From the NCBI RefSeq assembly GCF_036507355.1, contig NZ_AP027877.1: a stretch of DNA of 64,000 bases. One strand, written 5' to 3'. The notes beneath the pieces were generated by a model. The model was not told the origin of the DNA. It ran no database searches and saw only the letters and a list, made by a program, of their open reading frames with translations. The position numbers and the translations under genes were made by a program. Source of the DNA: Escherichia coli (GTDB lineage Bacteria > Pseudomonadota > Gammaproteobacteria > Enterobacterales > Enterobacteriaceae). How positions within the stretch are numbered: position 1 is the stretch's first letter; each line of letters begins with the position of its first letter. This document shows positions 49,809-64,000 of this stretch, piece by piece.

Positions 49809-50826
49809 ATGACTCTATTAGAAAAATTGTTATCAAAAGGATACTTTCCTAAAGAAGCTCTCCCTCCTTTCTCTACGGAAAAATATGCACGCGCAATTGT
49901 GAATGGATACGATAATCTTCCCCAATTATTTAGAACCGGAAAATTCATAAGTAAGTGCGCTATTCATAATATTTCCAGAAAAGGTACATTACGGAGAAAA
50001 CTTGGAATACCTAATCCCATCAACTTCTTTAGATTAAGTGAGGCAATAACTGAAAATTGGTACGATATATATGAATGCGCAAGTGAATCAACAATATCGT
50101 TGACAACTCCAGACCCTGCCAGCAATGGCGGAAGAGCATTCAACCCAAAGCATTCATTAAATGAGCTTCCAGATATTCATGCAAAACTTAGAAGTAAACA
50201 TAAATATATACTTAAAACCGATATAAGCAGATTTTACCACTCAATATACACTCATAGTATTGCATGGACTTACCATACAAAAGATATTTCAAAAAGAAAC
50301 AGAAGCAATAGTTTATTTGGCAATGTATTAGACAAGCATTCGCAAGATTCGCAAGATGGACAAACAATAGGGCTCCCCATTGGTCCAGATACATCACTTA
50401 TCATAGCAGAGTCTCTGTTATCAAATATTGATCTTAAGCTTAGCGAAAAAGGCATTAGCAATGGCTTACGTTATATAGATGATTATTTCCTAGGGTTCAA
50501 TACAATTGGGGAAGCAGAATCTGCATTAACAATAATGCAGGAACTGTTAAACGAATATGAGTTAGCATTGAACCCCTTGAAAACAGAAATCATACAATTA
50601 CCAATTGAATTCGAGCCATTAGCAATTTCAGAACTAAGGGCATTTTCATTTAGAGATACAGCTGGCGGTCAGAAATCAGATTTAATGCATTATTTCAACA
50701 TAGCTTTCAAGGCAGCAAAAGATTTACCAACGGAACCAATATTAAAATATGCAGTATCAAGGACATTTGAAGTAAATGTTACTGCTGAAAACTATCCTGT
50801 TTTTGAAAATTTTATATTACAATGTG
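49809..50826 (+). pseudogene. Reverse transcriptase, N-terminal 339 codons, interrupted by IS1
   Basis: RT motifs DISRFYHSIY, GLPIGPDTSL, YIDDYF (YxDD) and LNPLKTEI; the frame runs straight into the IS1 end at 50827. Confidence 0.8.
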
Positions 50827-50881
50827 GGTGATGCTGCCAACTTACTGATTTAGTGTATGATGGTGTTTTTGAGGTGCTCCA

Positions 50882-51157
50882 GTGGCTTCTGTTTCTATCA
50901 GCTGTCCCTCCTGTTCAGCTACTGACGGGGTGGTGCGTAACGGCAAAAGCACCGCCGGACATCAGCGCTATCTCTGCTCTCACTGTCGTAAAACATGGCA
51001 ACTGCAGTTCACTTACACCGCTTCTCAACCCGGTACGCACCAGAAAATCATTGATATGGCCATGAATGGCGTTGGATGCCGGGCAACAGCCCGCATTATG
51101 GGCGTTGGCCTCAACACGATTTTACGTCACTTAAAAAACTCAGGCCGCAGTCGGTAA
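50882..51157 (+). CDS. insA: IS1 InsA (91 aa)
   Basis: Zinc-finger N-terminus CPSC...CSHC; canonical IS1 ORF. Confidence 0.95.
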
Positions 51158-51579
51158 CCTCGCGCATACAGCCGGGCAGTGACGTCATCGTCTGCGCGGA
51201 AATGGACGAACAGTGGGGCTATGTCGGGGCTAAATCGCGCCAGCGCTGGCTGTTTTACGCGTATGACAGGCTCCGGAAGACGGTTGTTGCGCACGTATTC
51301 GGTGAACGCACGATGGCGACGCTGGGGCGTCTTATGAGCCTGCTGTCACCCTTTGACGTGGTGATATGGATGACGGATGGCTGGCCGCTGTATGAATCCC
51401 GCCTGAAGGGAAAGCTGCACGTAATCAGCAAGCGATATACGCAGCGAATTGAGCGGCATAACCTGAATCTGAGGCAGCACCTGGCACGGCTGGGACGGAA
51501 GTCGCTGTCGTTCTCAAAATCGGTGGAGCTGCATGACAAAGTCATCGGGCATTATCTGAACATAAAACACTATCAATAA
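51076..51579 (+). CDS. insB: IS1 InsB (transposase catalytic part, made as InsAB by frameshift)
   Basis: Canonical IS1 second ORF overlapping insA. Confidence 0.9.
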
Positions 51580-51602
51580 GTTGGAGTCATTACCTACAAT
51601 GT

Positions 51603-51881
51603 GTTACAGCTGACAGTAGCACATTAAAATACACCGTCAATCAGCTTATAAAATACAAAAGAATAGGTTATGTTCAGAACGTTGAGAACATTTCGCATAT
51701 TTTGAGACAATTAGCAATAACTGAAAGCTCACTTGGCCATGGACACGAAGTTGCTTATTGCCTATGGCTTTATTTGATACTACGCATCCCCATACCAGAA
51801 GTCGTCGTTAAAAATGTGGTACCAATGAGAGATCCATTTGTTGCAATTTTGTTATGCGATTGCAGGCAAAAAACCTCATGA
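51603..51881 (+). pseudogene. Reverse transcriptase C-terminal 92 codons displaced by IS1
   Basis: With one copy of the 9-bp duplication removed, the RT frame continues without stops from 51603 to TGA at 51879-51881. Confidence 0.7.
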
Positions 51882-53409: not shown

Positions 53410-54253
53410 ACAACGGATACAGCTTTCCCCGGCGCATAGGCCGATAGCCCCTGATTTTTGTCGGGGCTGCGAGCAGTACCTGAGCGCCGGGGCGACGGCT
53501 GTTGAGGTTTTGCGGGGTATCGGTTGTGCTCTCAGAGCAGCCGCCAGCGTGAGCTGGTCATCCCCCGGACCGTCCTGGTGGTCCCCCTCCGGTACTGGCT
53601 CATGTTCTCCTTTGGTGAATGAATGGTTGAAATAAATGCTGAAAAGCGACGTCAGAAGCTCGCCTGTGGCTGGAACAGTTGATATGACTGGTGCAGATGA
53701 AAATTTCTGCGGGCGTCAGTCTCTCACTCTGCGTGAGCGACTGACGCCCTGGTCTGGCGCAGGCGCTGAAAATTACACTCTGGTGCAGGATGGCGGCCAC
53801 GCGGCAGCAAATGCCTTCGGCAAATGCAGGCCGCAGCCCGTCATGTAAAGGGCGCTGGTAATCAGCAGGGTATAAGTGGGCCGGAGAAATTCCGGCAAAG
53901 AGAAACCGTGCAGCCGGTGAAGGCTGTTGCCGTTAAGCGATGACGATGAAGCCGTCCAGTGTATGTACTCTTAGCCTCAAACGCTTTCGCGTTCCGGTAT
54001 TGCGGAGGTCGTACCGGTAGCAGGGGGCTGGTCGTCCTGATAAATCAGGGGCTTCTTGCAGACCATGAAGCCAAAGGGGCTGTCAACCGACAGCTTATTG
54101 CAGGAGAGAGATTACACCGTAATTTCTGGCGCAGAAAGGGGAAACTCATTTTTCTGGAAATTGAGTTTCCCCCTGAATTTATGGAAAGTTTGTGAATGGA
54201 ACACTGCCGCGCTTCGCTTGTCGTCTCCCGGTGTGCGATTTGCTGTATCAGGA

Positions 54254-62179: not shown

Positions 62180-63496
62180 TCAAGCGCGTTGATTGTCTTT
62201 CATCAACAAAGCGGTTATTGCGGAAATCAGGCATCCAGCCAGCAAATAAATGGCGACGCTATGCCAGTTCCCGGCAAAGTAAGTGATGAGTGCAGCGGCA
62301 ATAAAAGGTGTAAATCCACCACCAACCACACTGGCAACCTGATAACCGACTCCAGCGCCACTATAGCGATAACTGGCACCAAACATTTCGGTAAACATCG
62401 GTTGTTGCACACACACCACCATGTCATGCGCAATGTTTGCCAGCATTATGGAGAAGAAAACTATCCAGAAAATAGATTGTGCTTCAAGCGCCATAAAGAA
62501 AGGAAATGCGCTCAACGTTCCGATCAACGCGCCTGTGATATAAACCCTGCGGCGACCAAAACGATCGGCAAGCCAGGCAAAACAGGGAATTGTCAGGCAG
62601 CTTAATCCACCTACCAGCAAACCAATATTAAGGAAAAGTTCGCGCGGTAACCCCATATTCTGAGTTGAATAATTAAGTGCAAAGGCGGTAACGATGTACA
62701 TTGTCAGCAACTCGCACAGTCGTAGCGCAATAATCTTCAGGAAAGCACCGGGATGTCGTAACAGAGCTTCGATAACCGGGATACGTTTTTTCGCGGCCGC
62801 TTGATTATGTTGCTGTTGTTCGAATTCCGCGGACTCCTCCATGCCATTGCGCACCCACAATGCTCCCAGTACCAGTACGATGCTAAACAGGAAAGGAATA
62901 CGCCAGCCCCAGCTTAAAAACTGTTCGTCAGTCGTCATCATACTGATCAATGAAACTAGTCCGGTTGAAAGCAGTAAACCTACACCGTAGCCAACTTGTA
63001 CACCGCTACTGTAAAAGGCTTTTTTATTTTTTGGTGCACTTTCAACGGAAAGCAACGCCGCGCCTCCCCATTCGCCGCCGACGGCAAATCCCTGAATGGC
63101 ACGCAGCGTCACCAGTAAAATAGGTGCCCACCACCCAATGGTCGAGAATGAAGGAAGAATACCAATCAAGGCTGTCGCGATGCCCATCATCCAGACGGTC
63201 AGCATTAACATGCGCTTACGTCCCAGTCGGTCGCCAAAGTGACCGAAAATGACACCGCCGAGCGGACGGAAAAGGAATCCGACGCCAAAGGTAGCAAATG
63301 CGGCGAGCGTTCCCATCGCCGGGCTTACTTGCGGGAAAAACTCGCGATTAAACACCAGTGCGGCGGTAATGCCATAGAGTAAAAAATCATACCAGTCGAC
63401 GACGGCACCAGCGAAACTGCCTAACGCAGCTCGTCGGGCGCGACTTAACGAAACCGTCCTTTCATCGGGACGAGTGGAGATGAGCGTGGAGTCCAT
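62180..63496 (-). CDS. shiA: Shikimate transporter, MFS (438 aa)
   Basis: 12-TM MFS sugar-porter-like sequence; position next to amn. Confidence 0.85.
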   Translation of the reverse strand: MDSTLISTRPDERTVSLSRARRAALGSFAGAVVDWYDFLLYGITAALVFNREFFPQVSPAMGTLAAFATFGVGFLFRPLGGVIFGHFGDRLGRKRMLMLTVWMMGIATALIGILPSFSTIGWWAPILLVTLRAIQGFAVGGEWGGAALLSVESAPKNKKAFYSSGVQVGYGVGLLLSTGLVSLISMMTTDEQFLSWGWRIPFLFSIVLVLGALWVRNGMEESAEFEQQQHNQAAAKKRIPVIEALLRHPGAFLKIIALRLCELLTMYIVTAFALNYSTQNMGLPRELFLNIGLLVGGLSCLTIPCFAWLADRFGRRRVYITGALIGTLSAFPFFMALEAQSIFWIVFFSIMLANIAHDMVVCVQQPMFTEMFGASYRYSGAGVGYQVASVVGGGFTPFIAAALITYFAGNWHSVAIYLLAGCLISAITALLMKDNQRA

Positions 63497-63587
63497 AATG
63501 ATCCTGTTTGTACTGTCTTTTTATAATTAGTATGGAAAAGGTAACTCACATTGCCGTCGATCTATAAACTGAATCGCCACGGATAAT

Positions 63588-64000
63588 CTAGACACTTCCG
63601 AGCCGTTGATAATACTGGTTTTCATATTCTGTCGGTGACATCTGATCGCTGGAACCATGCCGACGCTTACTGTTATAAAACATTTCGATGTAATCAAAAA
63701 TATCGCTGCGGGCTTCTTCCCGCGTTCCGTAGATCTTTTTCTTTATCCGTTCGCGTTTCAACAACTGGAAAAAGCTTTCTGCAACCGCATTATCATGGCA
63801 GTTACCGCGACGGCTCATGCTGCCCTCCAGGCCGTGTGATTTCAGGAACGACTGCCACTCATGGCTTGTGTACTGACTGCCCTGATCCGAATGAACCAGC
63901 ACCTGTTTTTGGGGATTACGGCGCCATACAGCCATCAGCAGTGCGTTCAGGACAATGTCCTTTGTCATCCGGGATTGCATGGACCAGCCGATAATTTTGC
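63588..64000 (-). mobile_element. IS3-family insertion sequence, transposase OrfB C-terminal part (runs off window end)
   Basis: Integrase-core sequence (HSDQGSQYTS...RRGNCHDNAVAESFF...); frame is open to position 64000. Confidence 0.75.

Follow-up and report, generated by a model that had tools for sequence, protein, structure and literature searches.

An IS3-family element inserted in the shiA leader of an Escherichia coli strain probably cuts shiA off from its native promoter

We analysed a 64,000-nt stretch of Escherichia coli DNA (RefSeq assembly GCF_036507355.1, contig NZ_AP027877.1), here called the window. Its last 2 kb comprise the end of amn, which ends just before shiA, then shiA itself and a transposase gene, all on the (−) strand. 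The shiA gene of the window is identical to a widespread allele. The features of the locus are listed below, with negative positions counted upstream from the shiA start codon.

62180–63496 (−): intact shiA coding sequence, 438 aa, MFS/Sugar_tr (Pfam), a shikimate:H+ symporter; annotated as shiA in RefSeq genomes
63497–63569 (−): retained shiA leader, −73 to −1, 100% identical to K-12
63544–63555 (−): core RyhB pairing site GGCAATGTGAGT, −59 to −48, intact; the positions agree with PMC3546686
63567–63569 (no strand): AAC, the 3-bp target-site duplication expected from other copies if the insertion was simple; its second copy would lie past the window
63570–64000 (−): right-hand 431 bp of a 1229-bp IS3-family element, cut at the window end (alignment)
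63570–63607 (−): IRR, the right terminal inverted repeat, whose outer end starts TGAATCGCCACGG at 63570
63585–63612 (−): TTATCA-16-TAGATT, a weak (8/12), speculative outward promoter-like site, the best and only outward candidate near the IS end
63588–63998 (−): C-terminus of the transposase orfB, with the rve integrase-core domain and the stop codon (ORF list, Pfam, NCBIfam)

The reading frame at 63588–63998 (−) encodes the final 136 residues of OrfB, has its stop codon at 63588–63590 and runs off the window end, in keeping with the original prediction that OrfB ends at 63588 and that the element continues past the window. The fragment matched the Pfam domains rve (5.7e-18), rve_2 and rve_3 and scored 179.2 bits against the NCBIfam profile NF033516 'IS3 family transposase' (profile positions 245–369 of 369; cut-off 160 bits), which confirmed the predicted assignment to the IS3 family. 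The window holds the orfB C-terminus only, and the remaining anatomy is known from full-length copies. A complete copy (L003:2504-3732) measures 1229 bp, has TG...CA ends and imperfect terminal repeats of 38 nt, and carries orfA (92 aa) and orfB, with a −1 frameshift site, A AAA AAG. PGAP labels the full-length copies 'programmed frameshift', and over the segment that they share with the window fragment they are 100% identical to it. The outer 13 nt of IRR are the same in the left repeat, IRL; beyond them the two sequences diverge, and the full 38-nt arms of full-length copies are 74% complementary. Other copies are flanked by 3-bp target duplications (GAC, AAG). No IRL pattern was found in the window.

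Copies with 97–100% identity were present on 2740 plasmids from Escherichia, Klebsiella, Enterobacter, Pantoea and other genera. Compared with known IS3-family elements, this one has the same DDE (rve) transposase, TG...CA ends, orfA/orfB frameshift and 3-bp duplications and shows no structural difference; it is a standard IS3-family IS that is widespread on Enterobacterales plasmids. Its nearest named relative is probably ISEhe3 of the IS51 group. ISEhe3 has been described as a member of the IS3 family, IS51 group, with direct repeats of 3–4 bp (PMC10425158). A literature search for the IS name by the inverted-repeat sequence returned no paper containing the repeat. On the (+) strand, TAGACA-16-AATACT (9/12) at 63589–63616 is promoter-like and directed into the IS, antisense to the orfB end; the number of such plus-strand sites equals the chance expectation.

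Alignment with the empty site of K-12 located the junction. The native sequence up to 63569 (...ATCTATAAAC; longer stretch ...GCCGTCGATCTATAAAC) is common to both, and past this point K-12 reads GAACCTTATGAG and the window reads TGAATCGCCACGGATAATCTAG. This 22-mer is the outer IRR end in every full-length copy examined and occurs once in the window, against zero occurrences expected by chance. The junction therefore falls between −74 and −73. The original prediction had placed the element terminus within 63545–63587, some 50–90 bp upstream of the shiA start, and had suggested a comparison with strains lacking the insertion; that comparison fixed the junction to the base, with the terminus at 63570 and 73 bases between the IS and the ATG. 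The end facing shiA is IRR, and the transposase genes and shiA lie on the same strand. A GC-rich, terminator-like hairpin with a T-rich tract after it was also observed inside the first ~15 shiA codons (63454–63473, (−)), and it is conserved in K-12 (L002:7668-7685).

shiA is a classical positively regulated target of the small RNA RyhB. The experimentally found RyhB site on the shiA mRNA extends from −76 to −27 (Prevost 2007, as cited in PMC3546686), the computed RyhB–shiA core duplex covers −59 to −48 (PMC3546686), and a reporter construct took '77 bases of the 5'UTR' of shiA (PMC4231740 supplement). The Capping-RACE paper lists no coordinates for the shiA transcription start. These secondary citations and the cloning description place the start of the transcript at about −77. 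In K-12, the sequence TTTGCA-17-TAGTCT ends 7 nt before −77, as read from the sequence, and is a reasonable predicted sigma-70 promoter for a start at that position. Because the RyhB site as cited reaches −76 and the leader as cloned has 77 bases, the mRNA would begin upstream of the junction, with the IS at approximately +4/+5. With the junction about 4 nt downstream of the start, the IS separates shiA from every element of its native promoter and from any regulatory site further upstream. Displacement of the native shiA promoter, originally raised as a possibility, is thus supported more strongly than proposed, as far as the start taken from these literature sources holds.

Compared with the RyhB-activated shiA leader (Prevost et al. 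2007), the window retains the same −73 to −1 sequence, core site and predicted inhibitory fold, whereas IS sequence stands in place of the native −77 to −74 bases and the promoter. The predicted fold of the leader was the same (−12.8 kcal/mol) with or without −77 to −74. RNAduplex runs on long leaders gave unrealistic extended duplexes, and only the −59 to −48 core was used. A shiA transcript of the window strain, if any is made, would carry a longer, IS-derived 5' extension, unlike the native RyhB-activated leader.

A functional shiA promoter within the remaining 73 bp would mean that the native promoter had been left undisturbed. This region is AT-rich and contains TATAAA-like strings, but the RyhB site and 5'UTR length given in the sources above put the mRNA start upstream of the junction, and a consensus scan of 63497–63569 found no promoter-like −35/−10 pair of at least 8/12. 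We regard a promoter in the retained leader as very improbable.

The window junction was absent from all complete RefSeq E. coli genomes (0 of 5426), and the exact 31-mer across it had no match in the genome-representative or metagenome contig collections. The arrangement is therefore not universal in the species, and its boundary lies no further from shiA than first supposed. Among the 5426 complete genomes, an IS copy at −73 is present only in strain G4/9, in inverted orientation. The reciprocal, promoter-side junction was likewise found in none of the 5426 when synthetic queries with both IS orientations were used; a partial match at mcrB of G4/9 was rejected as a chance resemblance over an 18-nt flank. 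S43 carries the same IS at −195 of shiA, 122 bp further upstream than in the window. By junction comparison, this copy (L001:4393-6844) has the window-like orientation, and it is listed as opposite beside the yeeL copies; yeeL is lost. A further 24 genomes (strain 0-4, L006:2601 onwards, and 23 others) have a copy of the IS, interrupted by IS30, in or next to yeeL. The shiA–yeeL–yeeJ interval is a zone in which landings and rearrangements of this IS recur, and the insertion in the shiA leader is a strain-specific, rare but ordinary IS polymorphism, a kind of finding that is already known.

Relatives of the window strain were gathered by exact matches to the ShiA protein and to the island integrase. 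The site was found in four states.

Window type: IRR faces shiA at −73; window only
G4/9 type: IRL faces shiA at −73; G4/9, ERZ27273564, GCA_000461235.1, GCA_030201435.1, GCA_958303415.1
−36 type: IRL faces shiA at −36; GCA_019297395.1, GCA_019957675.1 and 13 similar places
Empty site: no IS; GCA_900608085.1, GCA_900607725.1, GCA_900607805.1, which are more distant carriers of the island integrase

G4/9 and the window are 99.94% identical over 19 kb, and the 431-bp IS segment of the window is 100% identical to, and colinear with, the shiA-adjacent copy of G4/9. In the −36 type (L022:2291-3519, L027:2291-3519), the bases from −73 to −37 are missing, including the RyhB pairing core. SNPs over 16.7 kb place the window as sister to a combined clade of the G4/9 and −36 types; this clade is united by a derived A at window position 53733, and four changes are private to the window. 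Within the combined clade, the −36 type branches from inside the G4/9 type and is hence a derivative of it.

What lies beyond the IS differs among the relatives. In G4/9 (L004:19067-21100) and GCA_000461235.1 it is a leucine-rich-repeat yedN-like fragment followed by yedL, yedK...fliD, and in ERZ27273564 it is an AlpA-type island. Relative to what we take to be the K-12 gene order, the G4/9 arrangement skips ~42 kb including fliE–fliR. Neither arrangement shows a target duplication (AAC vs TAC in G4/9). In GCA_958303415.1 (L031:151-1467), a C-to-A change at the equivalent of window position 63073 was observed, and shiA is called as two ORFs of 141 and 291 aa. The split is apparently due to a nonsense mutation at codon 142 and would possibly fit relaxed selection after promoter loss.

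Given these relatives, the orientation or junction in the window might be an assembly artefact of a multicopy repeat, the true structure being of the G4/9 type. The window junction is present in no other sequence searched, all seven of the seven other examined members of the insertion-bearing lineage show the other orientation, and both IS ends share the identical 13-nt terminus. The ends differ past these 13 nt, however, so that junction-spanning reads or k-mers fix the orientation, and the 431 bp match the IS perfectly and colinearly. The window also has private SNPs and an IS1 insertion of its own, which mark a distinct strain in which another structure is plausible. An artefact consequently seems most improbable.

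At the very nucleotide of the window junction, the G4/9-type genomes (L004:19067, L023, L024, L030, L031) thus have the same IS in the opposite orientation. Recombination inside the IS cannot change which end abuts a flank, and the difference therefore reflects either two independent insertions or a linked switch in place. IS911-style targeting was not supported, since the best local score between the native target and the IS ends was 10, below the shuffle mean of 12.6. Megablast matches starting 10–16 nt before the IS end, considered as signs of a longer element or a specific target, were rejected because their flanks were unrelated. No strong consensus was found in the flanks of other IS copies. 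A target unlike the IS ends and flanks lacking a consensus give no support for a sequence-specific hot spot. An in-place orientation switch, instead of two independent insertions, appears rather unlikely. One possible route would start with another copy of the IS inserted so as to abut the end of the resident one, or with the formation of a head-to-head pair, after which one arm might be lost via the identical 13-nt termini in a palindrome-stimulated event. If true, this route would explain the missing target duplication and the foreign far-side DNA of the sister lineage. The orientation difference is the only mildly unusual aspect of the insertion.

We conclude, with a probability of about 0.78, that the IS is inserted in the shiA leader and cuts off the native promoter, leaving shiA dependent on IS-borne transcription. 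The 1229-bp IS would have entered the transcribed leader at about +4/+5 of the mRNA with IRR toward shiA, moving the native promoter at least 1.2 kb from the gene, and far more if a rearrangement like that of the relatives lies beyond the window. The 73-nt leader keeps the Shine-Dalgarno region and the RyhB core site. Transcription of shiA would then come only from inside the IS, by read-through from orfAB or from a weak outward promoter. With no promoter-like site found in the 73 bp, no terminator-like site found between the orfB stop and shiA, and a weak outward site, read-through from the IS would be the most likely source. Expression of shiA is probably weak and deregulated, judging from the sequence; it would be low and uncoupled from native transcriptional control, and RyhB-dependent translational activation may persist on the longer chimeric leader. 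Because shiA is intact and its allele widespread, the insertion may be recent, or the gene may continue to be expressed and under selection.

That an IS can displace a promoter is textbook knowledge, with classical polar or activating examples such as IS2 or IS3 insertions upstream of operons. Like these, the window has a co-oriented IS between promoter and coding sequence, and shiA expression would come to depend on signals within the IS; unlike them, no good outward or hybrid promoter was found in the scans of the window.

As the main alternative, the IS could instead activate shiA constitutively, through an outward promoter at its right terminus or one formed as a hybrid across the junction. 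Outward activation by the ends of IS3-family elements is established, and the co-orientation of the IS with an intact shiA, the lack of a terminator-like site between them and the candidate TTATCA-16-TAGATT (63612–63585) are compatible with it. The consensus scan, however, found no site of at least 9/12 on the shiA strand, the best reaching 8/12; such scans are crude and could miss a functional outward promoter in the IS end. The sister lineage, moreover, has the opposite IS orientation, one of its subclades deletes the RyhB site, and shiA is split into two ORFs in one relative. The inverted IS, the loss of the RyhB site and the split shiA accord more with indifference towards shiA than with selection for activating it, and we consider activation by the IS unlikely.

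With the promoter cut off by the insertion, the window strain would offer a natural allele in which a well-studied sRNA-activated gene retains its regulatory leader without its promoter, with some relatives also lacking the RyhB site. Such strains, a series that includes the human faecal isolate G4/9, would suit the separation of transcriptional from post-transcriptional control of shikimate uptake in iron limitation. The alleles at this one site (empty, either orientation at −73, and −36) could also serve as a small natural case of local IS3-family dynamics. What is of interest is that the leader hit by the IS is sRNA-regulated and well studied, and that the IS orientation is polymorphic; the insertion is otherwise routine.

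Elsewhere in the window, the 768-bp IS1 lies at 50827–51594 with a 9-bp duplication, TACAATGTG (50818–50826 and 51595–51603). The gene it disrupts, intact in G4/9, encodes a 431-aa reverse transcriptase and belongs to a tRNA-Asn-associated island.
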